A stretch of 64,000 nt of DNA, from NCBI GenBank assembly GCA_028710685.1, contig JAQTTQ010000001.1, positions 1,648 to 65,647 of the forward strand, in the 5' to 3' direction. This document shows positions 11,880 through 53,970 of this stretch, in pieces; positions within the stretch are counted from its first letter, which is position 1, and every line of letters starts with the position of its first letter. The DNA is from Candidatus Omnitrophota bacterium (lineage in GTDB: Bacteria > Omnitrophota > Gorgyraeia > Gygaellales > Profunditerraquicolaceae). The notes beneath the pieces are model-generated. The model was not told the DNA's origin, ran no database searches, and was given only the letters and a program-made list of their open reading frames with translations. The position numbers and the translations under genes are program-made.

Positions 11880-13025
11880 ATGAAAATTTCTAAGAAAGTA
11901 GATAAAATGCAGCCCTCCGGGATCCGGGCCTTTTTTGACCTGGTCCTGGGGATGAAGGATGTGATATCCTTAGGGGTTGGGGAGCCGGATTTTACCACTC
12001 CTTGGCCTATCCGCGAGGCAGGTATCTCTTCCCTTGAGGAAGGGTTTACTTCCTACACCTCCAATAAGGGTTTGTATAAGTTACGCCTGAGTGTCAGCCG
12101 TTACCTGAGAAATAGATACGGGGTTGAATATTGCCCGGATGAGGAGATACTTATAACCGTAGGCGTTAGCGAGGCAATGGATTTAGCCCTGCGTACCATA
12201 ATAAATCCTAACGATAAGATTTTGATTCCCACCCCAAACTATGTTTCTTACGGCCCGCTTACAGAGCTAGCCGGCGGTTTACCCGTCTATATAGATACCC
12301 AAAAAACTGGATTTAAGCTTACGCCCGGGGAACTAGAAAGGCATATTGATGATAAGACTAAGGGGATAATTTTTAATTATCCCTGCAATCCTACCGGCAT
12401 ATCCTATAGCAGGAAAGAGTTAAGCCAGATAAACAAGGTGTTGTTGAAAAATAAAATTATTTGTCTTTCTGATGAGATATATGCGGATCTGACATATGAT
12501 TTTGAGCATGTATCATTCCCTTCGTTGCCCGGGGCAAAGGAGAATGTGGTTTACTTTAACGGTTTCTCAAAATCCTATGCTATGACCGGCTGGCGCGTGG
12601 GATATGCCTGCGGGCCAAAGGAGATTATCGCGGGGATGACAAAAATCCACCAGTATACAATTATGTGCGTTTCTATAACCTCGCAAATGGCAGCCTGCGA
12701 AGCTTTGCATGCAGGCAAAGGTTTTGTTGAAAAAATGAAGCGGGAATATGCAAGGCGCAGAGAATTTGTAATCGATGGGCTAAACAGCATGGGGCTAACC
12801 TGCCATAAGCCCCAGGGCGCTTTTTATGCCTTTCCCAGCATTAAGAAAACGGGGTTAAGGTCCTTGGATTTTGCGCAGAAGCTGTTGAAGGATGAAAAAG
12901 TTGCAGTTGTTCCGGGGACTGCCTTTGGAGTTGAATTCGAAGATTATATAAGAATATCTTATGCCTCCAGCTTTGATAATTTAAAAGAGGCGCTACGCAG
13001 GATGGGCGCATTCTTAAAGAAATAA
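11880..13025 (+). CDS. class I/II PLP-dependent aminotransferase (aspartate-aminotransferase-like)
   Basis: PLP-lysine region NGFSKSYAMTGWRVGY and a fold typical of AAT-family aminotransferases. Confidence 0.85.
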   Translation: MKISKKVDKMQPSGIRAFFDLVLGMKDVISLGVGEPDFTTPWPIREAGISSLEEGFTSYTSNKGLYKLRLSVSRYLRNRYGVEYCPDEEILITVGVSEAMDLALRTIINPNDKILIPTPNYVSYGPLTELAGGLPVYIDTQKTGFKLTPGELERHIDDKTKGIIFNYPCNPTGISYSRKELSQINKVLLKNKIICLSDEIYADLTYDFEHVSFPSLPGAKENVVYFNGFSKSYAMTGWRVGYACGPKEIIAGMTKIHQYTIMCVSITSQMAACEALHAGKGFVEKMKREYARRREFVIDGLNSMGLTCHKPQGAFYAFPSIKKTGLRSLDFAQKLLKDEKVAVVPGTAFGVEFEDYIRISYASSFDNLKEALRRMGAFLKK

Positions 13026-13030
13026 TCATA

Positions 13031-13756
13031 ATGCCTAGAAAAAACAAGGATAATTACGAGATTTACGTAAAACAGATTGAAGTCTTGTCTAAGGTAGCAA
13101 ACCTGATTACTTCAGGAATGTACCTGGAGGAGCTTCTGCGCCTGATTGTCAATGTTACTGCTGAGATAATGAATTCTAAGATATCCTCTTTAATGCTCTT
13201 AGACCATGAAAAGAAAGAGTTGGTGGTGCGCGCTACTCAGTCAATCTCCGAATCTTATAATAAGAAGCCTAATATAAAGATGGGAACTGGCATAGCCGGC
13301 GAGGTTGCTTTAAATAATAAGGCTATAGTTGTGCCGGACCTTAAAAAAGACCCCCGCTATCTTAATCAGGATATCGCAAGGAAAGAAAAACTTTGTTCCC
13401 TGGCGAGCATTCCTATGGCGGTAAATGGGAAGGTTATCGGCGTGCTTAATTGTTATACTTCTAAGAAGCATGAATTTACCAAGACAGAGTTGAATCTTCT
13501 CAACGCCTTGGCAAATCAGGCAGCTATAGCTATTGAGAATGCAGAGCTAAACCTTCGAGCGCGCTCTGCGGAAGAGGCCCTTACTACGCGCAAAGTCGTA
13601 GAGAGGGCGAGGGATATTTTATCCCAGGAAGCTAACATTTTGCCTTCGGAAGCATACCGTTTAATTCAAAAACAGAGTATGGATTCCCGTAAGTCAATGC
13701 GGGAGGTAGCCGAGGCCATAATCTTGGCCAAGGATATAAAGAGTAAGAAGTATTGA
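13031..13756 (+). CDS. GAF-ANTAR protein (putative RNA-binding antiterminator with a ligand-sensing GAF domain)
   Basis: The N-terminal GAF segment includes GTGIAGEVALNNKAIVVPD. The C-terminal ANTAR segment TRKVVERARDILSQEANILPSEAYRLIQKQSMDSRKSMREVAEAII closely resembles the AmiR/NasR-type ANTAR domain. Confidence 0.75.
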   Translation: MPRKNKDNYEIYVKQIEVLSKVANLITSGMYLEELLRLIVNVTAEIMNSKISSLMLLDHEKKELVVRATQSISESYNKKPNIKMGTGIAGEVALNNKAIVVPDLKKDPRYLNQDIARKEKLCSLASIPMAVNGKVIGVLNCYTSKKHEFTKTELNLLNALANQAAIAIENAELNLRARSAEEALTTRKVVERARDILSQEANILPSEAYRLIQKQSMDSRKSMREVAEAIILAKDIKSKKY

Positions 13757-13825
13757 CAAATATAGATTTTATGTTAGACTAGTATTAGATTACGCAATGA
13801 TGCAGTAATACGCAATGACATAGAA

Positions 13826-13869
13826 GTCTTCTGGGCTTGTTAAAAAAGCCAGAAGGCTTTTTCTTTTTA
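13826..13869 (+). terminator. intrinsic terminator after the GAF-ANTAR gene
   Basis: Stem CTTCTGGGCTT/AAGCCAGAAGG with loop GTTAAAA, followed by CTTTTTCTTTTT. Confidence 0.7.
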
Positions 13870-13870
13870 C

Positions 13871-13924
13871 GGACACTGGAGTCCTCAATCCGGAATTTAT
13901 TCCGGTTGGGGGCTCTTATTTTTT
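13871..13924 (+). promoter_or_regulatory. leader of the sigma-factor gene: hexaloop hairpin overlapping a terminator-like structure
   Basis: GGAC-ACUGGA-GUCC (13871-13884) is a hexaloop hairpin. A GAGTCC (13879-13884) ... GGGCTC stem encloses the palindrome CCGGAATTTATTCCGG (13890-13905) and is followed by TTATTTTTT (13916-13924). The hexaloop hairpin and the terminator 5' arm share nucleotides. Confidence 0.45.
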
Positions 13925-13933
13925 GAGGGTAAG

Positions 13934-14455
13934 ATGGAGTATGCCCGGTTATTAAAAAAACTTTTACCTAAGATAAAAGGGATAGCCTTTAAGCTAAACA
14001 GGTATTATGGGCCTTTTGCTTATGATGATTTATGCCAGGAAGCGATTATCCATCTTTGGGTTAATTTTAAAGCAGGCCGTTTAGCTGAGAAGACGCAGAG
14101 TTATATATTGCAGGGGTGCTACTTTCACCTGAGGAATTATATCCGTAAATTTAGCGAAAAAAATACCCTCTTAAGCCTGGATTCATTAATTAATGATGAT
14201 AACGAGGTAACCCTTGAAGGCCTGCTCGTTTTAGATGATGAGAGAGATTTGCGCGATGTTATGAATGATAATTTCCTGGTGGAGGCTATTGAAAATAACG
14301 GTTTTACTATAAGGGAAAAGCAGATACTTAAGTTTTATAAAAAGGGACTCACTACTAGAGAAATAGGGGGGAGGCTCAGCCTTTCTCATGTTAGAATAAT
14401 TAAGATTATGCAGAATATAAGAATTAAGTGCCGTAAATACCAGGATATTTTTTAG
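13934..14455 (+). CDS. sigma-70 family RNA polymerase sigma factor (ECF-like, region 2 plus region 4)
   Basis: The region 2-like segment DLCQEAIIHLWVNF...YILQGCYFHLRNYIRK and the region 4 HTH LTTREIGGRLSLSHVRIIKIMQNIRIKCRK. The RBS is GAGGGTAAG. Length is 173 aa. Confidence 0.75.
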   Translation: MEYARLLKKLLPKIKGIAFKLNRYYGPFAYDDLCQEAIIHLWVNFKAGRLAEKTQSYILQGCYFHLRNYIRKFSEKNTLLSLDSLINDDNEVTLEGLLVLDDERDLRDVMNDNFLVEAIENNGFTIREKQILKFYKKGLTTREIGGRLSLSHVRIIKIMQNIRIKCRKYQDIF

Positions 14456-14552
14456 TTACCAGGCTTAAGCCGTTTTTACTTGTATATATAAGACACATTG
14501 AAGTGTAATCTAATACAAAGGCGTTCCTTGATAAAGGGGCGCTATTTTTTTT
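14456..14552 (+). promoter_or_regulatory. amt leader (element A): small terminator hairpin, hexaloop hairpin and a strong intrinsic terminator before the RBS
   Basis: GGCTTAAGCC plus Ts at 14462-14476. Hairpin ACAC-AUUGAA-GUGU at 14493-14506. A 9-bp terminator stem GCGTTCCTT/AAGGGGCGC with a GATA loop, then TATTTTTTTT, at 14521-14552. The amt RBS AAGGAGGGG follows directly. The block is about 70% identical to 18495-18587. Confidence 0.55.
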
Positions 14553-14569
14553 ACATTAAGGAGGGGTTT

Positions 14570-15874
14570 ATGGATATGAAGGTTGTTATTGATACAATTT
14601 GGGTCCTTATGACTGCAAAACTGGTATTCTTTATGAATCTGGGTTTTGCTATGGTTGAGTCAGGGTTTGCCCGTTCAAAGAACTGCGTAAATATCCTTTC
14701 TAAGAACTTCGTGGTTTTCGCCGTTTCATCTTTTGGTTTTCTGCTTTTAGGCTGGGGGCTTATGTTCGGAGACGGAAATGCTTTTATGGGGCTAAAGGGC
14801 CTCTTTTTTGCAAGCGGAATAGATAATTCTCCGGCAACCGCTGAGGCGTATAAGGGAGTTTATTCCGCTCTTTCCTGGACCGGAGTACCAATGTGGGCAA
14901 AATTCTTTTTTCAGCTGGTATTCTGCGGCACGGCAGCTACTATTGTATCCGGGGCTGTGGCAGAGCGGATTAAATATAATTCTTTTATAATTTTTTCTTT
15001 TCTTATGGCCATGTTTATTTATCCAATCGTCGGGCATTGGATATGGGGAGGTGGTTGGTTGCATAGTAAGGGGATGCTTGATTTCGCAGGTTCAACAGTA
15101 GTGCATTCAGTTGGAGGGTGGGCAGCTCTGGCAGGCATTTTGGTTTTAGGGCCGAGATTCGGTAAATATGCAAACGGCAGGTTAAATCCGATCCCCGGAC
15201 ATAACCTTTCGCTAGCCACATTAGGTACCTTTGTTCTCTGGTTTGGTTGGTTTGGTTTTAATCCCGGGTCAACAATGTCTGCCGATCCTATTGCAATAAG
15301 CCATGTCGCCATAACTACCAATATGGCGGCAGCTATGGCTATTATTAGCGCTACCTTGCTTTCCTGGATATTATTAGGAAAGCCTGATCTAGGGATGACT
15401 TTAAATGGCTGCTTGGCCGGGTTAGTGGCCATTACCGCCGCCTGTGCTTTTGTAAGTGTTGTAAGTGCTATTATAATCGGTTTAATTGCAGGCGCACTTG
15501 TGGTTTTATCGGTTATATTCTTTGATAAGATTAGAATCGATGATCCGGTAGGCGCCCTTTCAGTTCATCTTGTAAACGGAATCTTTGGTACTCTTTGTGT
15601 GGGACTTTTTGCGCAGGATAAGATTGCCGGTATAGATACGGGAAACGGGTTATTTTACGGGGGAGGGACTAAACTGTTAGCCTCTCAGCTAAGCGGTGTT
15701 TTAGGGGTTGCGCTATTTACTTTTTTTGTTTCACTTTTTTTCTGGGGCGTGCTTAAATATACCATGGGTATAAGGGTATCCCTTAAGGAAGAGGTAGAGG
15801 GTTTGGATATCGGAGAACACGGTAATTCTGCCTATCCTGAATTTTTTGGCAGGAAGCCGGCATATACAGTTTAA
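14570..15874 (+). CDS. amt: ammonium transporter (Amt family)
   Basis: About 11 TM helices and Amt/MEP-family sequence throughout (for example FGFNPGS, GHWIWGGGWL). The ATG at 14570 has an AAGGAGGGG RBS. The ORF-track start at 14498 is upstream of the leader terminator. Confidence 0.9.
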   Translation: MDMKVVIDTIWVLMTAKLVFFMNLGFAMVESGFARSKNCVNILSKNFVVFAVSSFGFLLLGWGLMFGDGNAFMGLKGLFFASGIDNSPATAEAYKGVYSALSWTGVPMWAKFFFQLVFCGTAATIVSGAVAERIKYNSFIIFSFLMAMFIYPIVGHWIWGGGWLHSKGMLDFAGSTVVHSVGGWAALAGILVLGPRFGKYANGRLNPIPGHNLSLATLGTFVLWFGWFGFNPGSTMSADPIAISHVAITTNMAAAMAIISATLLSWILLGKPDLGMTLNGCLAGLVAITAACAFVSVVSAIIIGLIAGALVVLSVIFFDKIRIDDPVGALSVHLVNGIFGTLCVGLFAQDKIAGIDTGNGLFYGGGTKLLASQLSGVLGVALFTFFVSLFFWGVLKYTMGIRVSLKEEVEGLDIGEHGNSAYPEFFGRKPAYTV

Positions 15875-15887
15875 GGAGGGTGAATAA

Positions 15888-16226
15888 ATGAAAAAAATAG
15901 AAGCCATTATAAGGCCAGAGAGTATTGATGCGGTGCGAAGCGCTTTAAGTGCGGCAGGGGTAACTGGCCTCATGATTTCGGATATTGAAGGGCATGGTAA
16001 ACAAAAAGGGGTTATCCAGCAGTGGAGGGGGGAGAAGTATAGGGTGGAGCTTCTTGCAAAAATAAAAATTGAGACCGTGGTTAAGGATGATGATGTGGAG
16101 CGTATAGCCGGCGTTATTATTGAAAGCGCCAGGACAGGCGAGATAGGAGACGGTAAGATATTTATATACCCGATTACGGAGGCGATAAGGATACGTACGG
16201 GAGAAAAGGGGGATTCGGTCATTTAG
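15888..16226 (+). CDS. glnK: nitrogen regulatory protein P-II (amt-linked)
   Basis: MKKIEAIIRPESIDAVRSALSAAGVTGLMISDIEGHGKQKG, 112 aa, immediately downstream of amt. Confidence 0.9.
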   Translation: MKKIEAIIRPESIDAVRSALSAAGVTGLMISDIEGHGKQKGVIQQWRGEKYRVELLAKIKIETVVKDDDVERIAGVIIESARTGEIGDGKIFIYPITEAIRIRTGEKGDSVI

Positions 16227-16295
16227 AATTTAGCGCTTTAAAAGTCTGTTTATTTCTTATAAGCTTGTGGTAGAATAGTGCAAAGGGAGGAAGAT

Positions 16296-18491
16296 ATGAG
16301 CATAAGGCAAAAAGCTTTATTTAAAGTTAAGAGTGTTGCGTTAGATAAGATAAATACCCCTAAAAAGGTTTCCGGGTATTTCGGTGAGAATACCTTCAGT
16401 TTAGATACCATGCGCAAACATATCTCCAAGGATACTTTTGAGGCCTTTAAGAGATGGATGTCGCAAGGCAGTACTATTACTTTAGGCCAGGCAAATGAAA
16501 TTGCCGAGGCGATGAAAGAGTGGGCTATGGCAAAGGGTGCTACTTATTACACTCATTGGTTTCAGCCTATGACCGGGCTAACCGCAGAAAAGCACGATAG
16601 CTTTATTTCTATGGTATCGCCTGGGAAGGTGATTGAGAAATTCTCAGGGAATAAGCTAATTCAGGGAGAGCCTGATGCCTCAAGCTTTCCTTCTGGCGGA
16701 ATTCGCGCTACTTTTGAGGCCCGCGGTTATACTGCTTGGGACCCTTCAAGCCCGGCCTTTATTATTGAAAGCGCCCTTGGGAAGACTCTTTGTATTCCCA
16801 GCATATTTATTTCTTATCACGGAGAGGCCTTAGATAAGAAGCTGCCGCTTTTACGTTCCGATGAAGCATTAAATAAAGCAGCAGTAGGCCTGTTAAAGAT
16901 CTTTGGGCGCAAGGATGTAAGGAAGGTATTCTCAACCTGCGGTCCGGAACAGGAGTATTTCTTAATTGATAAGCATTTTTATAATTTGCGGCAGGATTTA
17001 TTAATGGCAGGGAGGACCTTGATCGGGGCCCCTTCTCCGAAAGGGCAGCAGCTTGAAGACCAGTATTTTGGCACGATTAAGGAGCGGGTAGTTAATTTTA
17101 TGTTTGAATTGGCCCAGGAGGCTTATAAATTAGGAATTCCTATAATGACCCGGCATAATGAAGTTGCTCCTCATCAGTATGAGTTCGCTCCTATTTTTGA
17201 AGAGTCTAATATAGCTGCGGACCATAACCAGCTTTTAATGGAATTAATGAAGAAGGTTGCTTTAAGGCATGATATGGTATGCCTTTTGCATGAAAAGCCT
17301 TTTGCCGGCATAAACGGAAGCGGCAAGCACCTTAACTGGTCTTTGTCCGATGATAATGGCAATAACCTCCTTAACCCGGGAGAGACGCCTGAAGACAACC
17401 TGCAGTTTTTAACTATCTTAGCTGCGGTTTTGCGTGCGGTGTATCTTCATGCCGATCTTTTGCGCGCCTCCATTGCTATGGCAGGCAATGAACATCGTTT
17501 GGGGGCAAATGAAGCTCCTCCGGCTATTATCAGCGTATTCTTAGGAGAGCAGCTTACTGAAGTATTGGATATGCTGGAAAATGGGGTTAAGGCGAAGTTC
17601 TCCAAGCGCGATATCATTGACCTGGGGATTGCGCGCCTTCCTAAATTCAATAAGGATAGTACGGATAGAAACCGCACCTCTCCCTTTGCCTTTACCGGAG
17701 CAAAATTTGAGTTTCGCGCAGTAGGTTCATCCCAGAACATTTCAACCCCGATTACTATTATAAACACTATTATTGCCGAAAGCCTTGATTTTGTTGCTAG
17801 CGAGCTTAAAAGAGCTGTCAATTCGGGAAAGGATTTTAACTCTGCGGTACTTAAGGTCGTTAGTTCAGTCATAAAGGAGACAAAGAAGATCCGTTTTGAA
17901 GGTAATAATTATTCTAAGGAATGGCTGAATGAGGCGAAGAAGAGAGGGCTTCCTAATATAGCCTCTACCTATGAATCGCTTAAGGCGTTAAAGAAGGAGG
18001 GTAATGTCGGTCTTTTTGAGAAGTATAAGGTTTTTTCCAAGGAGGAGCTTATTGCCCGTTATCACATATGGATCCATATGTATAATTTGACCCTTGAAAT
18101 TGAGGCAAATACTTTAGGCGAAATGGTTAATGCCTCGGTTGTCCCCGCAGGGTATGAATACGAGAAGCTTCTTGCCAGGACCCTTGATGAGATAGTAAGG
18201 CTTAAGAAATCAGCCGGGTTAAAGATCGATGCTAACGCATTGAAAGATAAGAAGGAGCATCTGAGTGAAATAGTGAACAAGATTTATTATGTAAGGCATA
18301 ATACAGCCACAATGGGTTGCTTGCTTGAGAAGGCGTGCGCCCTGAGCAGTGAAAAAAGGGCTGAGGTTTATTTTAAGAACTTAAAGCCTTTAATGGAACA
18401 TATCAGAAAGCACGTAGACCAGCTGGAGTCTGTCGTCTCTGATGATGCCTGGGATCTGCCCAAGTACCGCGAGATGCTTTTTATTAAATAA
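16296..18491 (+). CDS. glnN: glutamine synthetase type III
   Basis: About 730 aa with the GSIII-specific N-terminal region and a catalytic core including NGSGKHLNWSL. The ATG at 16296 has a GGGAGG RBS. Confidence 0.85.
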   Translation: MSIRQKALFKVKSVALDKINTPKKVSGYFGENTFSLDTMRKHISKDTFEAFKRWMSQGSTITLGQANEIAEAMKEWAMAKGATYYTHWFQPMTGLTAEKHDSFISMVSPGKVIEKFSGNKLIQGEPDASSFPSGGIRATFEARGYTAWDPSSPAFIIESALGKTLCIPSIFISYHGEALDKKLPLLRSDEALNKAAVGLLKIFGRKDVRKVFSTCGPEQEYFLIDKHFYNLRQDLLMAGRTLIGAPSPKGQQLEDQYFGTIKERVVNFMFELAQEAYKLGIPIMTRHNEVAPHQYEFAPIFEESNIAADHNQLLMELMKKVALRHDMVCLLHEKPFAGINGSGKHLNWSLSDDNGNNLLNPGETPEDNLQFLTILAAVLRAVYLHADLLRASIAMAGNEHRLGANEAPPAIISVFLGEQLTEVLDMLENGVKAKFSKRDIIDLGIARLPKFNKDSTDRNRTSPFAFTGAKFEFRAVGSSQNISTPITIINTIIAESLDFVASELKRAVNSGKDFNSAVLKVVSSVIKETKKIRFEGNNYSKEWLNEAKKRGLPNIASTYESLKALKKEGNVGLFEKYKVFSKEELIARYHIWIHMYNLTLEIEANTLGEMVNASVVPAGYEYEKLLARTLDEIVRLKKSAGLKIDANALKDKKEHLSEIVNKIYYVRHNTATMGCLLEKACALSSEKRAEVYFKNLKPLMEHIRKHVDQLESVVSDDAWDLPKYREMLFIK

Positions 18492-18494
18492 TCT

Positions 18495-18618
18495 TGTTAC
18501 CAAGCCTAGGGCTTGTTTACTTGTATATGTAGAAGGCACATAGTAGTGTAATAGTACCAGAAAGAACGAAGGCGTTCATGATAGCTGATAAATAAGCTAA
18601 AGTGAACGTCTTTTTTTT
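18495..18618 (+). promoter_or_regulatory. fis-gltBD leader (element B): paralogous copy of the amt leader with hexaloop hairpin and terminator
   Basis: AAGCCTAGGGCTT hairpin plus Ts at 18503-18518. Hairpin (G)CAC-AUAGUA-GUG(U) at 18536-18549. Alternative hairpin GAACG-AAGG-CGTTC at 18564-18577. A 9-bp terminator stem GGCGTTCAT/GTGAACGTC followed by T8, at 18571-18618. Confidence 0.55.
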
Positions 18619-18648
18619 GGTTAAGCGGTGATTAAAATTTAGGCAGAC

Positions 18649-19026
18649 ATGATAACTATCCTAATATCTGAAGATGAAATAAGGGCCAAAGAGGCCCTCG
18701 CTAGGATGTTCGCCCAGGAGGGATATGAACTTTCAGAATCCTGCCTTACGGGCAATGTCATAAGGGTAGTGAAGAAGGGCTGCATCCGCGACCTTGCCTT
18801 TATAGGCGATAGTGCAATTGAGATACAGGATTCATTTCTTAGCGGCCGGGGGGCATTGTATAAATCGGTAGTTGAAGAAATAGAAAAGCCTTTAATCGAA
18901 CATACCCTTGAGAGTACCCAGGGCAATCAGATAAAGGCGGCAAAGGTTTTAGGGCTAAACCGTAATACCTTACGTACCAAGATAAGAAAGCTAGGAATTA
19001 ATGTTAGAAAATGGAAAATTATATGA
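18649..19026 (+). CDS. Fis-family DNA-binding protein
   Basis: The C-terminal segment LYKSVVEEIEKPLIEHTLESTQGNQIKAAKVLGLNRNTLRTKIRKLGI matches the Fis/NtrC C-terminal HTH. The N-terminus resembles a vestigial receiver start (ITILISEDEIRAKEALARM). Confidence 0.65.
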   Translation: MITILISEDEIRAKEALARMFAQEGYELSESCLTGNVIRVVKKGCIRDLAFIGDSAIEIQDSFLSGRGALYKSVVEEIEKPLIEHTLESTQGNQIKAAKVLGLNRNTLRTKIRKLGINVRKWKII

Positions 19027-22000
19027 AAAACGATAATGGTTTTCCTCTTGCCCAGGGATTATATGACCCTCGCCTCGAGCATGATTCCTGCGGCGTAGGT
19101 TTTGTTTGCGATATCCTTGGCAGGAAATCTAACGGTATCCTCAGGCAGGGAATCAGCGTATTAAACAGGCTTGCTCATCGCGGGGCGGTAGGGGCAGATC
19201 CTAAGACCGGGGATGGTGCAGGTATTTTAATCCAGATCCCTCATGAGTTTTTCGCTAAGGTTGCCCAAGATAAAGGTATTGCCTTGCCTGATCCGGGGTT
19301 TTATGCAAGCGGATTGGTATTCTTGCCTCAGAATAAGGAAGAGCGTCAATTCTGCAAAGATTATTTTGAAGAAGCCATAAATGAGCACGGGCAGTCTTTG
19401 CTTGGTTGGCGGGTTGTGCCTACCGATAGTTCTGATATCGGAGAGGGCGCAAAATCCACCCAGCCGGTTTTTGAACAGGTTTTTATCGCCAGGGGTAAGG
19501 AGATTAAAAGCCAATTAGATTTTGAAAGAAGGCTGTATATAATCCGCAGGAGAATAGAAAATATTGTCCGCTCCTCCAAATTAAAACAAAAGAGCTCATT
19601 TTATATCACCAATATCTCAAGCCGGACTTTTTCTTATAAGGGCCTGCTTATGCCGGGGCAGCTGGATAGTTTCTTTATTGATTTGAAGGACAATAGCTTA
19701 AAAAGTGCATTGTGCCTTGTGCATTCCAGGTATTCGACAAACACCTTTCCTACCTGGGATTTAGCGCAGCCATTTAGGTTTCTGGCGCATAACGGAGAAA
19801 TCAATACCATCCGCGGTAATATTAACGGGGTTAGCGCTAGGGAGCGCCTTTTAGCAAGCGAATTTTTCGGCCTGGATATAGAGAAGTTAAAGCCGATAAT
19901 TGTGGAGGGCGGCAGCGATTCCGCAGCGATAGATAATTTTTTTGAATTGCTCGTTTTATCCGGAAGGCCCATTGATCATGTAATGATGATGCTTATCCCC
20001 TCTGCCTGGGAACACGATAAACTCATGAAGAAAGAGTTAAGGGACTTTTATAAATACCACGCCTGTTTTATGGAGCCTTGGGATGGCCCGGCAGCGGTTG
20101 CTTTTACCGATGGGGATAATATAGCGGCAGCCTTGGATAGAAACGGCTTGAGGCCGGCACGTTATATTATTACAAACGATAATCTATGCGTAATGGCCTC
20201 TGAGGTCGGGGTCCTGGATATCGCGCCTAAGGATATCAAGGTTTCCGGCAGGCTTGAACCGGGGAAGATTTTCTTTATAGATACAAAAGCCGGGCGTGTA
20301 ATTAACGACGCAAAGATTAAAGAGGAAATATCTCAGCATAATCCTTATGGTTATTGGCTTTCAAAGAACCTGGTGGATTTAGATAAGTTATCCGGCTCAG
20401 GTTTGCCGCTGAAACACAAGTCCGAGGATTTAATCGCAGCCTTAAAAAGCTTTGGTTATTCGCGCGAAGACCTGAAATTAATTATCCGGCCTATGGCCGA
20501 GGAAGGCAAGGAGCCTGTGGGGTCTATGGGGAATGATACCCCTCATGCCTTCTTGTCCGATAAGCCTCAACTTTTGTATAATTATTTTAAACAGCTTTTT
20601 GCGCAGGTCACTAACCCGGCAATTGATTCCATAAGGGAAAAGCTGGTTATGAGCCTGGAAAGCTTTATCGGACCGGAGAAGAATTTGTTGGAAGAAACCC
20701 CAAAACACAGCCATAAATTAAGGGTTAATAACCCTATTCTTTCGGATGAGGAATTATCCAGGATCAGGGATATAGGCGTAAATAACTTTAAGACCAAGAC
20801 AATATATACTTTCTTTGATGCCGGGAATAAGGAAGATGGTTTCAGGATGGCCCTGGAAAGGATATGTTTTGAAGCAGAATACGCTATAGAGCAGGGGTAT
20901 TCCTTTATCATATTAAGCGACAGGGGGGCGGATAGGGATGGCATTGCCCTGCCGGCACTTTTAGCCACAAGTGCGATACATCACTATTTAGTCAAGAAAA
21001 CTATACGTTCGCAGGTTGCTTTAATAGTGGAGAGTGCGGAGCCCAGGGAGGTGCATCATTTTGCGCTTCTTTTTGGTTATGGCGCTGATTGTATCAATCC
21101 CTATCTTGCCTATAGGGCAGTTGAATATCTTATCGAACAAAAAGAATTAAAAACAGATATCAAGACTGCGCTTAAAAATTATAATAAGGCGGTAACCGAT
21201 GGGATACTAAAAATACTATCCAAAATGGGTATTTCTACCCTTAGAAGTTACCGCGGAGCACAAATTTTTGAGGCCTTAGGCTTAAGCCAGGATTTAGTTG
21301 ACCGGTATTTTACAGGTACTGTTTCAAGGATCGGCGGAGTCAATTTAAGCGGGATTGCCCTGGAAACTATTCTACGCCACAGGCAGGCTTATTCTGCGCG
21401 CAACCCCCAGAACGTTTGTTTACCAAGCGGAGGGGTATACCAATGGAAGGCAGACGGAGAATTTCATCTGTGGAATCCTATGAGTATTGCAGCCTTGCAG
21501 GCTGCTGCGAGGGAAAATAACCCGGTTAAATACGCTGAGTTTGCAAAACTGATTAATGATCAATCGGATAACCCGACTACCTTAAGAAGTTTATTCAGAT
21601 TTAAGGCGGCAGAAAAAGTTCCGCTTGATGAAGTGGAGCCGGTAAGCGCTATAATGAAACGTTTTGTAACCGGCGCAATGAGTTTTGGCTCCATAAGTGC
21701 TCCGGCCCATGAAACTATAGCTATCGCCATGAACAGGATCGGCGGAAAGTCTAATACCGGAGAGGGAGGAGAGGACCCCAATAGGTTTATAGCCTTGCCT
21801 AACGGTGACTCGCGAAGGTCGGCTATTAAGCAGGTGGCATCAGGAAGATTCGGGGTAACTATAAATTACCTTATTAATGCCGATGAGATACAGATTAAGA
21901 TTGCCCAGGGCGCTAAACCGGGAGAGGGAGGGCAGTTGCCCGGGCATAAGGTAAGCGGGGTAATCGCCAGGATACGTTATACTACTGCCGGGGTAACCTT

Positions 22001-23561
22001 AATATCCCCTCCTCCTCATCATGACATCTATTCGATTGAAGACTTAGCGCAGCTTATTTTTGACTTAAAGAATGCAAATCCTAAGGCGCGCATCAGCGTA
22101 AAGCTTGTCTCGGAAATGGGTGTGGGTACTGTGGCTGCTGGTGTGGCCAAGGGGCATGCAGATATGATTTTAATCTCCGCAGGAGACGGTGGCACAGGGG
22201 CCTCGCCTTTAAGTTCTATTAAATATGCGGGCCTTCCCTGGGAGCTGGGTTTATCCGAGACGCATCAGACATTGCTTCTGAATAATCTGCGCTCAAGGGT
22301 TCGTATACAGGCTGATGGCCAGATGCGTACCGGGCGGGATGTGGTTATCGCGACTTTATTGGGAGCGGAGGAATTCGGTTTTTGTTCTGCCGTATTGGTA
22401 GTAGTCGGGTGTGTAATGCTTAGGCATTGCCACTTGAATAATTGTTCCCTGGGGGTGGCTACGCAGGATGATATTCTGCAAAAAAGATTTAAGGGCAGGC
22501 CGGAGTATATAGTTAATTATTTCAATTTTGTTGCCCAGGAGATAAGAGAGATTATGAGCAGCCTTGGGATAAGGAATATGGATGAAATGGTCGGACGCTC
22601 CGATCTTCTTGAAGTAGACAAAGATAGAGTCCCCTTAAAGGCTAAAAATTTGGATTATTCCCGTATACTCTACCGTCCTTTGCTAGCTGACGGGACAGCA
22701 AGGCATTTTCAGCCTAAAAAGAATAACAGCTTAGGGCCGGTGTTAGATAACAAGCTGATTAAAGAATGTTCTGTTTCTATTAGAGAGAACAAGCCGATAG
22801 TAGTAACTAGCGGGATAAATAATGCAGATCGTTCTGTAGGCGCGATGTTAAGCGGGGAAGTATGCCGCGTCTGCGGGGATGGGGTACTTCTTGAGGATAC
22901 TCTAAGATGCCGATTTCGCGGGATAGCCGGACAGAGTTTCGGGGCTTTCTTGGCTAAGGGGATAACATTTGAGCTCGAGGGGATGAGTAACGATTATGTA
23001 GGTAAGAGTATATCCGGAGGAAAAATAATAATCTATCCTGATCGCAGCTCTTCTTTTAATCCCCATGAGAATATTATTATTGGTAATACCAGTTTCTACG
23101 GGGCAATATCAGGGGAGGCTTATATAAGCGGTTTGGCAGGGGAGCGGTTCTGCATCAGGAATTCCGGCTTATATGCGGTTGTGGAAGGAGTGGGAGATCA
23201 TGGCTGTGAATATATGACCGGGGGAAGGGTTATAATACTGGGAAGAACCGGAAGAAACTTTGCCGCAGGTATGTCCGGGGGCATAGCCTATGTTTACGAT
23301 CAGGATGGCAGCTTTAAAGATAGATGCAATATGGATATGGTGGCGCTGGATAGGATAAAGGGCGATGATTTAGATACCATATATCATCTTTTGCATAATC
23401 ATTTAAAATATGCCAAAAGCAAGAAGGCAAAGTCGATACTTGAGAATATCCACGATGAGCTTAAGTATTTTATCAAGGTAATACCTATAGAATACAAAAG
23501 AATACTTGAGGGTATTAAGATTGAGCAAAAGCTCGATTTAATGGAGAGATCTGATGGGTGA
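19011..23561 (+). CDS. gltB: glutamate synthase large subunit
   Basis: 1516 aa with the Ntn amidotransferase start (...CGVGF), FMN/Fe-S central domains and the C-terminal GXXDGG repeat domain. An alternative ATG at 19023 overlaps the fis stop. Confidence 0.9.
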   Translation: MENYMKNDNGFPLAQGLYDPRLEHDSCGVGFVCDILGRKSNGILRQGISVLNRLAHRGAVGADPKTGDGAGILIQIPHEFFAKVAQDKGIALPDPGFYASGLVFLPQNKEERQFCKDYFEEAINEHGQSLLGWRVVPTDSSDIGEGAKSTQPVFEQVFIARGKEIKSQLDFERRLYIIRRRIENIVRSSKLKQKSSFYITNISSRTFSYKGLLMPGQLDSFFIDLKDNSLKSALCLVHSRYSTNTFPTWDLAQPFRFLAHNGEINTIRGNINGVSARERLLASEFFGLDIEKLKPIIVEGGSDSAAIDNFFELLVLSGRPIDHVMMMLIPSAWEHDKLMKKELRDFYKYHACFMEPWDGPAAVAFTDGDNIAAALDRNGLRPARYIITNDNLCVMASEVGVLDIAPKDIKVSGRLEPGKIFFIDTKAGRVINDAKIKEEISQHNPYGYWLSKNLVDLDKLSGSGLPLKHKSEDLIAALKSFGYSREDLKLIIRPMAEEGKEPVGSMGNDTPHAFLSDKPQLLYNYFKQLFAQVTNPAIDSIREKLVMSLESFIGPEKNLLEETPKHSHKLRVNNPILSDEELSRIRDIGVNNFKTKTIYTFFDAGNKEDGFRMALERICFEAEYAIEQGYSFIILSDRGADRDGIALPALLATSAIHHYLVKKTIRSQVALIVESAEPREVHHFALLFGYGADCINPYLAYRAVEYLIEQKELKTDIKTALKNYNKAVTDGILKILSKMGISTLRSYRGAQIFEALGLSQDLVDRYFTGTVSRIGGVNLSGIALETILRHRQAYSARNPQNVCLPSGGVYQWKADGEFHLWNPMSIAALQAAARENNPVKYAEFAKLINDQSDNPTTLRSLFRFKAAEKVPLDEVEPVSAIMKRFVTGAMSFGSISAPAHETIAIAMNRIGGKSNTGEGGEDPNRFIALPNGDSRRSAIKQVASGRFGVTINYLINADEIQIKIAQGAKPGEGGQLPGHKVSGVIARIRYTTAGVTLISPPPHHDIYSIEDLAQLIFDLKNANPKARISVKLVSEMGVGTVAAGVAKGHADMILISAGDGGTGASPLSSIKYAGLPWELGLSETHQTLLLNNLRSRVRIQADGQMRTGRDVVIATLLGAEEFGFCSAVLVVVGCVMLRHCHLNNCSLGVATQDDILQKRFKGRPEYIVNYFNFVAQEIREIMSSLGIRNMDEMVGRSDLLEVDKDRVPLKAKNLDYSRILYRPLLADGTARHFQPKKNNSLGPVLDNKLIKECSVSIRENKPIVVTSGINNADRSVGAMLSGEVCRVCGDGVLLEDTLRCRFRGIAGQSFGAFLAKGITFELEGMSNDYVGKSISGGKIIIYPDRSSSFNPHENIIIGNTSFYGAISGEAYISGLAGERFCIRNSGLYAVVEGVGDHGCEYMTGGRVIILGRTGRNFAAGMSGGIAYVYDQDGSFKDRCNMDMVALDRIKGDDLDTIYHLLHNHLKYAKSKKAKSILENIHDELKYFIKVIPIEYKRILEGIKIEQKLDLMERSDG

Positions 23562-24999
23562 TTTAAGGGGGTTCTTAAAATTAGCCAGGCAGGATAATTC
23601 TTATAGGGATGTCTGCCAGAGGGTAGAGGATTACAGGGATGTGGTTAAGCCCCGTAAGGATATCAAGGCAAAAGAGCAGGCTTCGCGCTGCATGGATTGC
23701 GGGACTCCCTTTTGCCATTTTAAATGTCCGCTGGGTAATTACATACCCGAGTGGAATGATTTTATGTTTCGGGGGAATTGGGAAGAGGCAGTGAAGTTAC
23801 TGGAGGCAGCCAACAGCCTTGCGGAGATTACCGGGCGGGTTTGCCCGGCTTTATGCGAATACGCCTGTGTTTTAGGCCTTAACGATGATCCGGTAACTAT
23901 CCGTGATAACGAGTTATCTGTAGTGGAATACGGTTTTAATAATGGTTTGATTAAGCCGGTCAAAATCAGCCAAAGAACCGGGAAAAAGGTTGCGGTGGTT
24001 GGTTCCGGACCGGCAGGACTATCATGCGCATCCCTTCTTAATAAGGCAGGGCATACGGTCACTGTTTTTGAGCGCGATAGTGAACTTGGGGGGATTCTCC
24101 GTTTTGGCATTCCGGATTTTAAACTTGAGAAAGGTATTTTGGACAGGCGTATCGGCTTATGGAATAAAGAGGGGGTTATTTTCAAGGTTAATACAGATGT
24201 GGGCAGCGATTATCCGGTGGCTAAATTAATTGAAGGTTTTGACGCGATTTGCCTGGCAGGGGGATCGCGAATCCCCCGGGATTTAAATATTGAAGGCCGC
24301 AATTTAAAAGGAATATATTTTGCGATGGATTACCTTAAGCAGTCTAACCTTCGCGTATCCGGCAAGAAAATCCCGGCAGAAGAGTTAATCGATGCCAGGG
24401 GAAAGAGTGTTGTGGTTATAGGCGGGGGAGATACCGGATCGGATTGCGTAGGTATTGCGCATCGCCAGAAAGCCGGCTGTGTTGTGCAGATTGAAGTTTT
24501 ACCCCGGCCTCCCGAATGCCGCACAGAAGACCAGCCTTGGCCTAATTATCCGCTTCTTTTAAGAAACTCTAGCAGCCATGAAGAAGGCGGAGAGCGCTAT
24601 TGGTCGGTATTGACAAAGAAATTTGTAGGCGAAAAAGGCAGGGTAAATAAATTATCTTGCGTTAAAGTTGAGTTGATCCCTCAACCGGGTAATCCCTGCC
24701 TAATAAGTAAAGAAATACCCGGGAGTGAATTCTATATCAAGGCGGATTTAGTAATAATTGCGGCAGGGTTTCTGCATCCGCAGCATACGGGGTTGCTTAA
24801 AGAATTAAATATAGGCTTTGATCAGAAGGGTAATGTTTTTACTCAAGACAATTATGCTACCTCAGTAGATAAGATATTTTGTGCAGGCGATATGCGCCGC
24901 GGGCAATCTTTGGTTGTCTGGGCTATTTCAGAAGGTAGGCGCTGTGCCTATGCGATAGATAAGTTTCTTATGGGAGAGAGCAGTTTGGCTCAAATTTAA
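23554..24999 (+). CDS. gltD: glutamate synthase small subunit (NADPH)
   Basis: N-terminal Cys clusters (CMDCGTPFCHFKCP), the FAD/NAD Rossmann segment VAVVGSGPAGLSCAS, and an 8-nt overlap with gltB. Confidence 0.9.
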   Translation: MGDLRGFLKLARQDNSYRDVCQRVEDYRDVVKPRKDIKAKEQASRCMDCGTPFCHFKCPLGNYIPEWNDFMFRGNWEEAVKLLEAANSLAEITGRVCPALCEYACVLGLNDDPVTIRDNELSVVEYGFNNGLIKPVKISQRTGKKVAVVGSGPAGLSCASLLNKAGHTVTVFERDSELGGILRFGIPDFKLEKGILDRRIGLWNKEGVIFKVNTDVGSDYPVAKLIEGFDAICLAGGSRIPRDLNIEGRNLKGIYFAMDYLKQSNLRVSGKKIPAEELIDARGKSVVVIGGGDTGSDCVGIAHRQKAGCVVQIEVLPRPPECRTEDQPWPNYPLLLRNSSSHEEGGERYWSVLTKKFVGEKGRVNKLSCVKVELIPQPGNPCLISKEIPGSEFYIKADLVIIAAGFLHPQHTGLLKELNIGFDQKGNVFTQDNYATSVDKIFCAGDMRRGQSLVVWAISEGRRCAYAIDKFLMGESSLAQI

Positions 25000-27594: not shown

Positions 27595-27650
27595 CAGTTT
27601 CTTAAACTATGCTATACTTACAAATAGTTCAAGGGAGAACTCAAGAGTTT

Positions 27651-27701
27651 AAACAATGGCGTTTAAGGGCCGTTCCATCGGCATTAAACGCCTTTTTGTT
27701 T
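27651..27701 (+). promoter_or_regulatory. pyrG leader: hexaloop hairpin overlapping an intrinsic terminator (candidate attenuator)
   Basis: AAAC-AAUGGC-GUUU (27651-27664). A 9-bp terminator stem GGCGTTTAA (27658-27666) / TTAAACGCC (27685-27693) with a structured loop, followed by TTTTTGTTT. The two structures are mutually exclusive. Confidence 0.5.
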
Positions 27702-34774: not shown

Positions 34775-35599
34775 ATGAAAATACTAAGCAAGGAAGTGTT
34801 AAGCGATTTTCAGGGGGTAAGGGTTATCAGCATGGAGATTTTTGCCCCGAAAATTGCCTTAAAGGCTAAGCCCGGGCAGTTTATCGCGCTTATGGTAAAT
34901 AAGGACGGTGAGAGGGTGCCTTTAACCATAGTAAGCACGGGAAATGACTCTATAAGAATTATCTTTCAGGAAGCAGGTTTTACTACCAGGCTCTTGGGAA
35001 GGCTTAATCTCCAGGATACCCTTTATGCTATAGTCGGGCCTCTTGGCCATGCAACCGATATCAAGCGTTTCGGCAAAGTAATTCTGGTCGGAGGAGGGGT
35101 AGGCATTGCCGAGATTTATCCGGTAGCAAAGGCCTTAAAAGAAGCGGGAAATAATGTTACCGGTATTCTTGGTGCAAGGACCAGGGATCTGCTTATCCTT
35201 GAGAATGAATTAAGGGAGGCCTCGAGCCAGTTGTTTGTGGCAACGGATGACGGGTCTTACCAGAGAAAGGGCTTTGTTACCGATATATTAAAAGAATTAC
35301 TAGAAAAAGATAAATATGATTTGGTTTATTCGGTAGGCCCGATTCCGATGATGAAGAGGGTTGCGCAGGTCACTAAGGGTTTTAAGGTTAAGACTATTGT
35401 TTCCCTGAATGCGTTAATGGTGGATGCAACCGGTATGTGCGGATGCTGCCGGGTTACGGTCTCAGGGCAAACAAAATTCAGCTGTATCGACGGCCCGGAG
35501 TTTGAGGCGCAGGAGATAGACTGGGAGGAGCTAACCCAGAGAAACCGGGTCTATCAGGATAAAGAAAAGCATATCTGTAATCTTAATAAGTTATTCTAA
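34775..35599 (+). CDS. nfnA: NfnA/SudB-type small subunit (PyrK-like FAD/[2Fe-2S] ferredoxin-NADP+ reductase subunit)
   Basis: PyrK-like fold with a C-terminal Cys cluster CGCCRVTVSGQTKFSC, 274 aa, paired with a GltD-like subunit. Confidence 0.75.
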   Translation: MKILSKEVLSDFQGVRVISMEIFAPKIALKAKPGQFIALMVNKDGERVPLTIVSTGNDSIRIIFQEAGFTTRLLGRLNLQDTLYAIVGPLGHATDIKRFGKVILVGGGVGIAEIYPVAKALKEAGNNVTGILGARTRDLLILENELREASSQLFVATDDGSYQRKGFVTDILKELLEKDKYDLVYSVGPIPMMKRVAQVTKGFKVKTIVSLNALMVDATGMCGCCRVTVSGQTKFSCIDGPEFEAQEIDWEELTQRNRVYQDKEKHICNLNKLF

Positions 35600-53595: not shown

Positions 53596-53668
53596 GGGCC
53601 TCTAGCTCATCCGGTAGAGCAGCGGCTTTTTAAGCCGCGTGTGCCGAGTTCGAGTCTCGGGAGGCTCA
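53596..53668 (+). tRNA. tRNA-Lys (anticodon TTT)
   Basis: Cloverleaf folded by hand. Acceptor GGGCCTC/GAGGCTC, D stem GCTC/GAGC, anticodon stem GCGGC/GCCGC with loop TTTTTAA, T stem CCGAG/CTCGG. Length is 73 nt. Confidence 0.85.
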
Positions 53669-53749
53669 TATATTTGTTACCGAGGTGATGATCCCCTTGC
53701 AAGTCTTAGCGGGGGGACTCGCTCCTTTTAAGTAAGCGCAGGGAGCTCG

Positions 53750-53764
53750 GTCTCGGGAGGCTCA
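53750..53764 (+). repeat. direct repeat of the 3' end of tRNA-Lys (tRNA fragment)
   Basis: TCTCGGGAGGCTCA at 53750-53764 matches 53654-53668 (the T-arm 3' half plus acceptor 3' strand). No matching 5' half is present. Confidence 0.5.
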
Positions 53765-53792
53765 ATAAATATATCAGCGGCAAGAGGAAATA

Positions 53793-53877
53793 GGGCGGAT
53801 GGCGAAATTGGCAGACGCGATAGCCTTAGGAGCTATTGGGGCAACCCTTGGAGGTTCAAATCCTCTTCCGCCCACCA
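53793..53877 (+). tRNA. tRNA-Leu (anticodon TAG), type II with long variable arm and encoded CCA
   Basis: Acceptor GGGCGGA/TCCGCCC, anticodon stem ATAGC/GCTAT with loop CTTAGGA, a 13-nt variable arm, T stem GGAGG/CCTCT, then A and CCA. Confidence 0.8.
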
Positions 53878-53897
53878 AAGAATATTTCAAAAATCAT

Positions 53898-53970
53898 GCG
53901 GGAGTGGCTCAGTTGGTAGAGCGTAACCTTGCCAAGGTTAATGTCGCGGGTTCGAACCCCGTCTCCCGCT
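53898..53970 (+). tRNA. tRNA-Gly (anticodon GCC)
   Basis: Acceptor GCGGGAG/CTCCCGC, anticodon stem TAACC/GGTTA with loop TTGCCAA, T loop TTCGAAC. Length is 73 nt. Confidence 0.85.

Follow-up and report, generated by a model that had tools for sequence, protein, structure and literature searches.

Candidate ANTAR-type antitermination leaders with a promoter-like box upstream of nitrogen-assimilation operons in Candidatus Omnitrophota

Introduction

Known ANTAR systems include GnfR of Geobacter, NasR/nasF of Klebsiella, and AmiR/amiE of Pseudomonas. The RNA targets of ANTAR proteins consist of two hairpins whose hexaloops have an A at position 1 and a G at position 4, and part of the second hairpin is shared with the stem of a terminator; in several phyla, targets of this type have been predicted upstream of genes for PII, ammonium transporters, glutamate and glutamine synthases, and nitrogenase (PMC8934654, PMC3369931). 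Here we describe two leaders in a 64,000-nucleotide (nt) stretch of a Candidatus Omnitrophota genome (GenBank assembly GCA_028710685.1, contig JAQTTQ010000001.1, positions 1,648 to 65,647; the whole stretch is referred to below as the window), one of which (copy A) occupies the gap 5' of the ammonium transporter gene amt and the other (copy B) the gap 5' of a gene for a protein with an HTH_8 domain, which is followed by gltBD. Judged by their sequences, both are a new, lineage-specific member of the known ANTAR dual-hexaloop antitermination leaders, and each begins with a conserved bipartite box that is probably a promoter.

The Enterococcus faecalis eut leaders, which are bound by EutV (PMC3369931, PMC8934654), resemble copies A and B in their tandem hexaloop hairpins with A1 and G4, in a second hairpin whose 3' side is the 5' side of the terminator, in the presence of an ANTAR gene nearby, and in forming a regulon of several leaders. 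However, EutV senses through a phosphorylated receiver domain whereas the candidate regulator here has a GAF domain, the eut targets serve ethanolamine use rather than ammonium assimilation, and, unlike in eut, about one loop in five has a G at position 1 and a conserved noncanonical, promoter-like box accompanies the leaders; the loop of the second hairpin, being part of the terminator, is also limited to ANNGGC. The regulons predicted for Desulfotomaculum acetoxidans, D. reducens, and Pelobacter carbinolicus (PMC3369931) are similar in having several ANTAR leaders per genome before PII, amt, glutamate/glutamine synthase, and nitrogenase genes, but the leaders described here are in Omnitrophota, go with another sensor domain, form a lineage-specific sequence family, and include a first leader to which a sigma factor gene is positionally tied. 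GAF-ANTAR proteins were uncharacterised in 2012 (PMC3369931), and our literature search found no paper connecting ANTAR with Omnitrophota.

Results and discussion

Two related leaders in the window

Both copies contain, in order, the bipartite box, a first hairpin (P1), a second hairpin (P2), and an intrinsic terminator that overlaps P2. Copy A starts at 14455, its G being the last base of the stop codon (TAG) of the upstream gene, and ends with the T-run at 14552; the box of copy B begins 5 nt past the stop codon of a type III glutamine synthetase (GSIII) gene.

14455-14484, + strand: bipartite box of copy A (GTTACCA at 14455-14461, spacer at 14461-14476, TACTTGTA at 14477-14484)
14493-14506, + strand: P1 of copy A, ACAC-AUUGAA-GUGU, from the minimum free energy (MFE) fold and family covariation; hexaloop with A1 and G4
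14514-14525, + strand: P2 of copy A, (U)AC-AAAGGC-GU(U), aligned to the family form AAC-ANNGGC-GTT
14520-14543, + strand: intrinsic terminator of copy A, GGCGUUCCUU-GAUA-AAGGGGCGCU, then A and U8 at 14545-14552, from a terminator scan and fold
14558-14564, + strand: ribosome-binding site AAGGAGG following copy A, from the sequence
18496-18525, + strand: bipartite box of copy B (GTTACCA at 18496-18502, spacer, TACTTGTA at 18518-18525)
18536-18549, + strand: P1 of copy B, GCAC-AUAGUA-GUGU, from the fold
18564-18577, + strand: P2 of copy B, GAAC-GAAGGC-GUUC, with G at loop position 1; its 3' arm doubles as the terminator 5' arm
18568-18618, + strand: intrinsic terminator of copy B, an interrupted stem at 18568-18613 (MFE) and U8 at 18611-18618, from the fold and covariance model R1

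An earlier note, made from the letters of this DNA, had put the identity of the two leaders at about 70% and held their resemblance to exceed chance, and both points are borne out: mean column identity in a MAFFT alignment is 76% (81% over the first 36 nt), the local alignment score is 53 against 14.8 ± 2.4 for shuffled sequences (maximum 32, n = 2,000), and copy B is the top non-self match of copy A in the 64 kb on both strands, the runner-up scoring 30. The shared blocks it listed (GTTACCA, TTTACTTGTATAT, CACAT..AGTGTAAT, and AAGGCGTTC) are all found in both copies, and AAGGCGTTC is indeed the 5' arm of both downstream terminators in the terminator scan and folds; the box is present in the window only in copies A and B, and the upstream blocks have no further copy. 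The extent of copy A needed little change (14455-14552), but copy B runs from 18496 to 18618 and is longer than its noted end at 18587, and the gene designated fis codes for a 125-amino-acid (aa) protein with an NtrC/Fis-type HTH_8 domain. The proposal of a shared promoter-plus-attenuator module for amt-glnK and gltBD stands in outline, copy A serving amt-glnK(-GSIII) and copy B serving HTH_8-gltBD, but not with the hairpin and promoter hexamers then named, as discussed at the end. A repeat or mobile element was also considered, and was rejected because of the fixed orientation relative to genes, the occurrence of the element only 5' of nitrogen-related genes, and the absence of flanking repeats.

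The full leaders fold as P1 plus terminator, at -18.3 kcal/mol (z = -3.65) for copy A and -26.8 kcal/mol (z = -6.12) for copy B, and R1, a covariance model of P1 plus terminator that was searched on the fetched contigs, matches copy B at 18534-18615 (31.9 bits). When the leaders are cut short ahead of the 3' arm of the terminator, P1 still folds and is accompanied by a hairpin in the P2 region, which in copy B is drawn as GAACG-AAGG-CGUUC, a tetraloop alternative of P2. The terminator stem begins with the GGC of the P2 loop and the P2 3' arm, GUU(C), in both copies and throughout the family described below.

Conservation and covariation in Omnitrophota

The exact Amt protein is also present on other Candidatus Omnitrophota contigs from metagenome-assembled genomes (e.g., GCA_028690815.1), and the leaders of the same-species contigs (L001-L008) are identical or differ by a single base and thus carry no comparative information. 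An Amt-based search of species-representative genomes returned mostly other phyla and only two element-bearing loci, so relatives were collected through GSIII homologues, the contexts of which at 88-91% identity (L089, L090, and L091) keep the gene order and have both leaders at both positions in all three. Leaders in these relatives consist of GTTACC, 16 variable nt, TACTTGTA, a variable 10-22 nt, P1, a linker, P2, and the terminator, the 5' arm of which starts inside P2. P1 has the form (A/G)CAC-RNNGNA-GTG(T/C), with ACAC/GTGT in some and GCAC/GTGC in others, so that orthologues of copy B with GCAC/GUGC show a compensatory change; P2 is, for example, GAAC-RNAGGC-GTTC, and orthologues of copy B have GAAC-GUAGGC-GUUC and GAAC-AGAGGC-GUUC. 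Two more distant Omnitrophota genomes have the unit 5' of a hybrid-cluster protein gene (L009, P1 GCGC-ATGGAT-GCGC) and 5' of a porin-amt operon (L035), and all five genomes retain box, P1, P2, and terminator while the spacers diverge.

Metagenomes were scanned with a pattern anchored on the box and GGCGTTC, with P1 left free, and at least 120 contigs were recovered. Counting extra copies in the same contigs, and with the same-species contigs represented by L001, there are at least 149 distinct elements, and the named contigs are all Omnitrophota; the dual-hexaloop layout is present in 144 of the 149, the P1 hairpin being missing in the other five. Among 80 amt loci of many phyla, strong matches to R1 are in Omnitrophota loci only, and on the fetched contigs its matches are mostly exact-box elements, together with two variants with one mismatch in the box and about six leaders with canonical promoters.

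Covariation was assessed in a MAFFT alignment of 44 compact members, chosen independently of P1. P1 cells are paired in 96% of cases, compared with 35-55% for slid controls, and none of 500 shuffles is as good; three of the four pairs show compensatory changes, with AU replaced by GC in 7 of the 44 sequences, and RNAalifold recovers P1 and the terminator unaided. The P1 loop has A at position 1 in 34 of 44 members (77%), with G in the other 10, and G at position 4 in 43 of 44 (98%). In P2 the helix is 3-4 bp, (G)AAC:GTT(C), and the loop has the form ANNGGC, with A at position 1 in 109 of 142 and a G at position 4 that is fixed by the search pattern.

The genes that follow the family members include amt (36), GSIII (15), HTH_8 (9), type I glutamine synthetase (6), glnK (5), gltB (3), hcp (2), nifH (1), and an amino-acid permease (1), as well as BBP2 porins (6) and two unannotated secreted families of 29 and 15 members. 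The secreted proteins are about 260-300 aa long without a Pfam match, and in 44 elements (L107 1194-2114, L149 1141-2046, and 42 others) their gene is the one directly following the box, in many cases preceding amt; they have the motifs 'ATPSTHIWAPSTDIQPY' and 'GLLDG..SGDLAFNS.YMWRG'; both families are probably nitrogen-regulated outer-membrane channels. The box and leader precede nifH on one contig (L204 4292-5408) and a hybrid-cluster (Prismane) gene on two (e.g., L009 1274-2707), and the regulon in some lineages thus reaches nitrogen fixation and hydroxylamine/NO handling. Read from sequence, the regulon of this uncultivated phylum includes amt, PII, glutamine synthetases of both types, glutamate synthase, nitrogenase, hybrid-cluster protein, the two secreted families, and perhaps CTP synthase (see below), giving a concrete and testable picture of its nitrogen control.

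Some members carry additional elements. Many metagenome loci have a second hexaloop hairpin, AGAC-GCAGGC-GUCU or GGAC-UAAGGC-GUCC, 5-25 nt past the first terminator (e.g., L035 9821-9838, L099, L107, and L151), and a further terminator often comes after it; copies A and B lack such tandem attenuators. An extra G+C-rich hairpin, CCCC-G.AGAA.-GGGG, lies between the box and P1 in L094, L095, L099, L105, L107, L156, and L166 and may be a third protein-binding loop. Leaders of the gltBD type have a further block, TGATTAAAATTTAGGCA, just before the HTH_8 start codon (18625-18645 in the window), which is present in all four of those in the window, L089, L090, and L091 and is not a normal ribosome-binding site; in other leaders of this type (L101, L115, L124, and L192) the related AATTAGGCA lies after P1.

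A GAF-ANTAR protein as candidate antiterminator

The genes around the two leaders are as follows (11.3-27.6 kb region, + strand; annotated with Pfam and NCBIfam, with the families given where specific).

11880-13025, + strand: aminotransferase
13031-13756, + strand: GAF-ANTAR protein, 241 aa (Pfam GAF_2, 84.5 bits; ANTAR, 59.2 bits)
13934-14455, + strand: extracytoplasmic function (ECF)-type sigma-70 family sigma factor, 173 aa (NCBIfam TIGR02937)
14570-15874, + strand: amt (ATG at 14570)
15888-16226, + strand: glnK (PII)
16278-18491, + strand: type III glutamine synthetase (GSIII)
18649-19026, + strand: HTH_8 protein, 125 aa, with an NtrC/Fis-type DNA-binding domain (ATG at 18649)
19011-23561, + strand: gltB
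23554-24999, + strand: gltD

The features of ANTAR targets are thus all present at the sequence level, with two hexaloop hairpins, A1 and G4, overlap of P2 with the terminator, compensatory changes in P1, and an ANTAR gene in the genome. This gene lies 0.7 kb upstream of copy A, and its synteny is kept in relatives; its ANTAR domain scores well above the Pfam cut-off (27.3 bits) and matches Rv1626 (1s8n) and EutV (6wsh/6ww6), and its GAF part matches NifA-like, PtsP, and NifA GAF domains. The GAF-ANTAR protein is therefore the candidate antiterminator that would read P1 and P2. In two relatives, a sigma-70 promoter and an ANTAR-type leader precede a GAF-ANTAR gene (L090 1442-1505 and L108 522-586), which suggests autoregulation of the antiterminator, and L090 has two GAF-ANTAR genes in tandem.

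In the proposed mechanism, transcription would start a few bases past TACTTGTA, and the nascent RNA would first fold P1 (4 bp and a hexaloop with A1 and G4). By default, the bases ...GGCGUUC... would pair with the downstream arm to form the intrinsic terminator, and transcription would stop before amt or HTH_8-gltBD. An active GAF-ANTAR dimer would instead bind P1 and the weak P2 ((G)AAC-ANNGGC-GUU(C)) at their hexaloops, and the stabilised P2 would sequester the bases with which the terminator 5' arm begins, so that no terminator forms and the operon is read through. We infer that the signal is nitrogen limitation, perhaps with the NifA/PtsP-like GAF domain sensing 2-oxoglutarate or glutamine. 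That copies A and B combine a promoter-like box with an ANTAR-type antitermination leader acting in this way is, in our judgement, likely. Were the ANTAR part alone correct, it would extend, as might be expected, a mechanism that has been known since 2012. The family offers an alignment of about 150 natural ANTAR-target variants for a regulator of the GAF-ANTAR class, of which the papers cited here describe no characterised example, and this should aid in defining the important loop and stem positions.

Some observations do not favour this assignment. P2 of copy A amounts to 2 bp and a U-U mismatch only, and when copy A is shortened to exclude the terminator 3' arm, a different hairpin, AAGG-CGUU-CCUU, is favoured; P2 is unable to show covariation in the main set because the search pattern fixed its 3' arm; and whereas only tRNAs reach the Rfam gathering score across the window, a search of 13800-19200 at E values up to 10 returned only a subthreshold match to DUF3800-I (26.5 vs 44.2 bits), which is driven by the terminator. 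The weakness of P2 in copy A, and the many kinds of terminator-based attenuators that precede bacterial nitrogen genes, would also suit a terminator governed by some factor other than an ANTAR protein, such as a metabolite riboswitch (e.g., for glutamine), a leader peptide, or another RNA-binding protein, with the ANTAR neighbour being coincidental. We consider this very improbable: no Rfam family, glutamine riboswitches included, matches at E values up to 10, the leader is about 60 nt and too short and simple for a known aptamer, and no conserved leader open reading frame is evident. In contrast, the ANTAR signature (hexaloops, A1, G4, and overlap of P2 with the terminator) is found in both hairpins family-wide and in four leaders of the window, the GAF-ANTAR gene is syntenic in relatives, and in L090 an ANTAR gene lies behind its own leader of this type.

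Further ANTAR-type leaders with canonical promoters

In addition to copies A and B, two other ANTAR-type leaders are present in the window, for a total of four, and both have sigma-70-like promoters. The first precedes the sigma factor gene and has two successive attenuators; the second precedes pyrG, which codes for CTP synthase.

13753-13925, + strand: leader of the sigma factor gene, with TTGACA at 13753-13758, N16, and TAGACT at 13775-13780
13790-13808 and 13817-13828, + strand: first attenuator of the sigma leader, P1 UUACGC-AAUGAU-GC(A)GUAA and P2 GAC-AUAGAA-GUC, respectively
13826-13858, + strand: first terminator of the sigma leader, followed by a U-run and overlapped by P2
13871-13884, + strand: second attenuator of the sigma leader, GGAC-ACUGGA-GUCC, with its terminator at 13878-13916
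27595-27697, + strand: leader of pyrG, with TTGACA at 27595-27600, N17, and TATACT, and no GTTACC box
27627-27640 and 27651-27664, + strand: hairpins of the pyrG leader, P1 GUUC-AAGGGA-GAAC and P2 AAAC-AAUGGC-GUUU, respectively
27658-27692, + strand: terminator of the pyrG leader, GGCGUUUAA...UUAAACGCC, followed by a U-run and overlapping P2

The -35 hexamer of the sigma leader overlaps the stop codon of the GAF-ANTAR gene. The same layout is present in about half of 57 relatives inspected, and in the remainder the sigma factor gene follows another gene (NAD-synthase-like in some) with little or no leader. R1 matches the pyrG leader at 27637-27697 (19.3 bits, E = 0.008), and pyrG may belong to the ANTAR regulon without having the GTTACC box. 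Across these leader classes the P2 helix varies as AAC/GUU, GAC/GUC, GGAC/GUCC, and AAAC/GUUU, which is where the support for this helix comes from, and the existence of ANTAR leaders with canonical promoters indicates that the ANTAR module is separable from the box.

The bipartite box as a putative promoter

The box has the form GTTACCA-N15-TTACTTGTA with fixed spacing, and in copy A the spacer is 16 nt counted from the A of GTTACCA and ends in a T-run. GTTACC and TACTTGTA are exact, with 16 nt between them, in all 10 leaders reached by protein homology alone (two each in the window, L089, L090, and L091, and one each in L009 and L035), and the family logo reads R-GTTACCA-RRR-N7-TTTTT-TACTTGTA, followed by a weaker TGTAAG. 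The box is not palindromic, and the starts of its two parts are 22 bp apart, with a variable spacer between the parts, which is the geometry of -35 and -10 elements. In about six other ANTAR-type leaders of the same contigs, a canonical TTGACA-N17-TAnnnT promoter ends 6-11 nt before P1, and in the box-type leaders TACTTG ends 10-12 nt before P1, at the equivalent position; it is from this position and geometry that the box is taken to be a promoter, although it is unlike the housekeeping promoters of this organism (e.g., TTGACA-N17-TATACT). Neither copy matches by eye the consensus of TnrA/GlnR (TGTNAN7TNACA), NtcA (GTAN8TAC), or sigma-54 (TGGCAC-N5-TTGCW). A one-mismatch relative of the box core, GTTACC-N16-TACTAG without the A after GTTACC, is present at 35276-35303 in the window, within chance expectation.

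The box could instead be an operator, for example for the HTH_8 protein of the gltBD operon, or an RNA-level or processing signal, with the ANTAR leader unchanged and transcription entering from the upstream gene as part of a long operon with internal attenuators. Such internal ANTAR attenuators are known (PMC3369931), the HTH_8 protein is itself in the regulon, only 7-17 nt separate the upstream gene from the box with no terminator between them, and the box fits no known promoter consensus. We nonetheless find the operator or processing role unlikely: dimers of the HTH_8/Fis type usually bind inverted repeats and the box has none of this symmetry, it has -35/-10 geometry across a variable spacer and sits exactly where sister leaders have canonical sigma-70 promoters, and the gene upstream of 29 box elements is unrelated or absent from the reference set.

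A sigma factor gene adjacent to the box

If the box is a promoter, the 173-aa ECF-type sigma factor coded immediately upstream of copy A would be the candidate to recognise GTTACCA-N15-TTACTTGTA, a step to which we attach less confidence than to those involving ANTAR. The open reading frame matches TIGR02937 over residues 3-169 of 173 (49.1 bits vs a cut-off of 42.9); Pfam Sigma70_r2/r4 are below their cut-offs for this protein but are recorded for its homologues, a profile built from these homologues matches sigma factors in the Protein Data Bank, and their source annotation is 'sigma-70 family RNA polymerase sigma factor'. The sigma stop codon overlaps the first base of the copy A box, and in 77 of the 79 related loci listed the box starts within 100 nt of the point at which the sigma match ends (mostly 7-17 nt beyond it), whether the next gene is amt, a porin, hcp, nifH, or a permease. 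The gene preceding the 149 distinct elements is a sigma factor gene in 72, glnK in 25, and GSIII in 13.

As in other ECF (group 4) systems, there is a small two-domain sigma factor and, next to its gene, a pair of elements resembling -35 and -10 with 16-nt spacing. ECF promoters typically have AAC and CGT motifs, and ECF genes are typically, although not universally, autoregulated and cotranscribed with an anti-sigma gene. By contrast, GTTACCA and TACTTGTA are unlike the usual motifs, there is no anti-sigma gene, and the sigma factor gene sits behind a sigma-70 promoter and ANTAR attenuators rather than its own box.

Several features tell against the box as a promoter or the sigma factor as its partner. 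The box resembles neither ECF nor sigma-70 motifs and matches no known promoter consensus, and the search pattern is in part responsible for its invariance among the 149 elements; free of this bias are the 10 leaders reached by protein homology and the two one-mismatch variants. Gene order is the only tie between sigma factor and box; the sigma factor gene has no box in front of it, unlike those of most ECF sigma factors, and no anti-sigma gene was seen beside it, the next gene being amt or a porin gene. No terminator lies between the sigma factor gene and copy A either, so read-through from upstream could feed the leader without a promoter in the box.

With the sigma factor gene located behind a sigma-70 promoter and two ANTAR attenuators, the circuit would be a feed-forward cascade, in which ANTAR would permit synthesis of the sigma factor, and sigma factor and ANTAR together would permit expression of the nitrogen genes. 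In its most general form, which we offer tentatively as a plausible but less than even prospect, a GAF-ANTAR protein in the Omnitrophota lineages sampled would gate an ECF-type sigma factor that lacks an anti-sigma, the sigma factor would drive GTTACCA-N15-TTACTTGTA before every nitrogen operon, and ANTAR would gate each transcript again. This would be a coherent feed-forward AND gate that replaces the sigma-54/NtrC, GlnR/TnrA, or NtcA systems of other phyla and reaches nitrogenase in some members, and if the promoter and sigma assignments are correct, both the circuit design and the pairing of this sigma factor with its promoter would be new.

The spacer hairpin and the TTGTAT/TGTAAT hexamers

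The earlier note had placed a sigma-70-type promoter, TTGTAT-N18-20-TGTAAT, in the two leaders, downstream of a selected hairpin with GGCTT and AAGCC arms (AAGCC-tag-GGCTT in copy B) and ahead of a simple terminator attenuator. The hexamers are present 18-20 nt apart in both copies, and each spacer of the box can form a 5-6 bp hairpin (in copy A, GGCTTAAGCC at 14462-14471, + strand). However, TGTAAT, unlike a -10 hexamer, does not have A as its second base, and it consists of the 3' arm of P1 and its flank; P1 behaves as an RNA helix, with compensatory changes, and must therefore be transcribed. Spacing is not conserved, being 18 nt in copy A and about 27 nt or more in orthologous leaders and in family members with insertions, and housekeeping promoters of this organism look canonical. 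This arrangement is contradicted by the comparative sequence data, and we give it almost no credence.

The letters of the GGCTT/AAGCC hairpin are likewise present, but they lie in the variable spacer of the box, and the covariation attributed to them is found in P1, within the block CACAT..AGTGTAAT, and not in the hairpin. The spacer hairpins fold at -4.1 and -7.7 kcal/mol, no more stably than shuffled sequences (z = -0.24 and -0.83). Over 146 distinct spacers, the best stem length is 4.46, compared with 4.43 ± 0.07 expected from position-specific composition in a column shuffle, and the hairpin is thus not a structure under selection in the family; for MFE the excess is marginal only (-0.82 vs -0.63 ± 0.07 expected). 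A conserved spacer structure was accordingly rejected on these shuffle statistics and fold z-scores. The 5' half of the spacer is A/G-rich and the 3' half T-rich, so that many spacers are able to form small hairpins, and the close relative L176 has a different 5-bp stem. The spacer hairpin may have a minor role, such as insulating the promoter from upstream transcription. Elsewhere in the window, the sole Rfam matches at gathering score are a three-tRNA cluster at 53596-53970.

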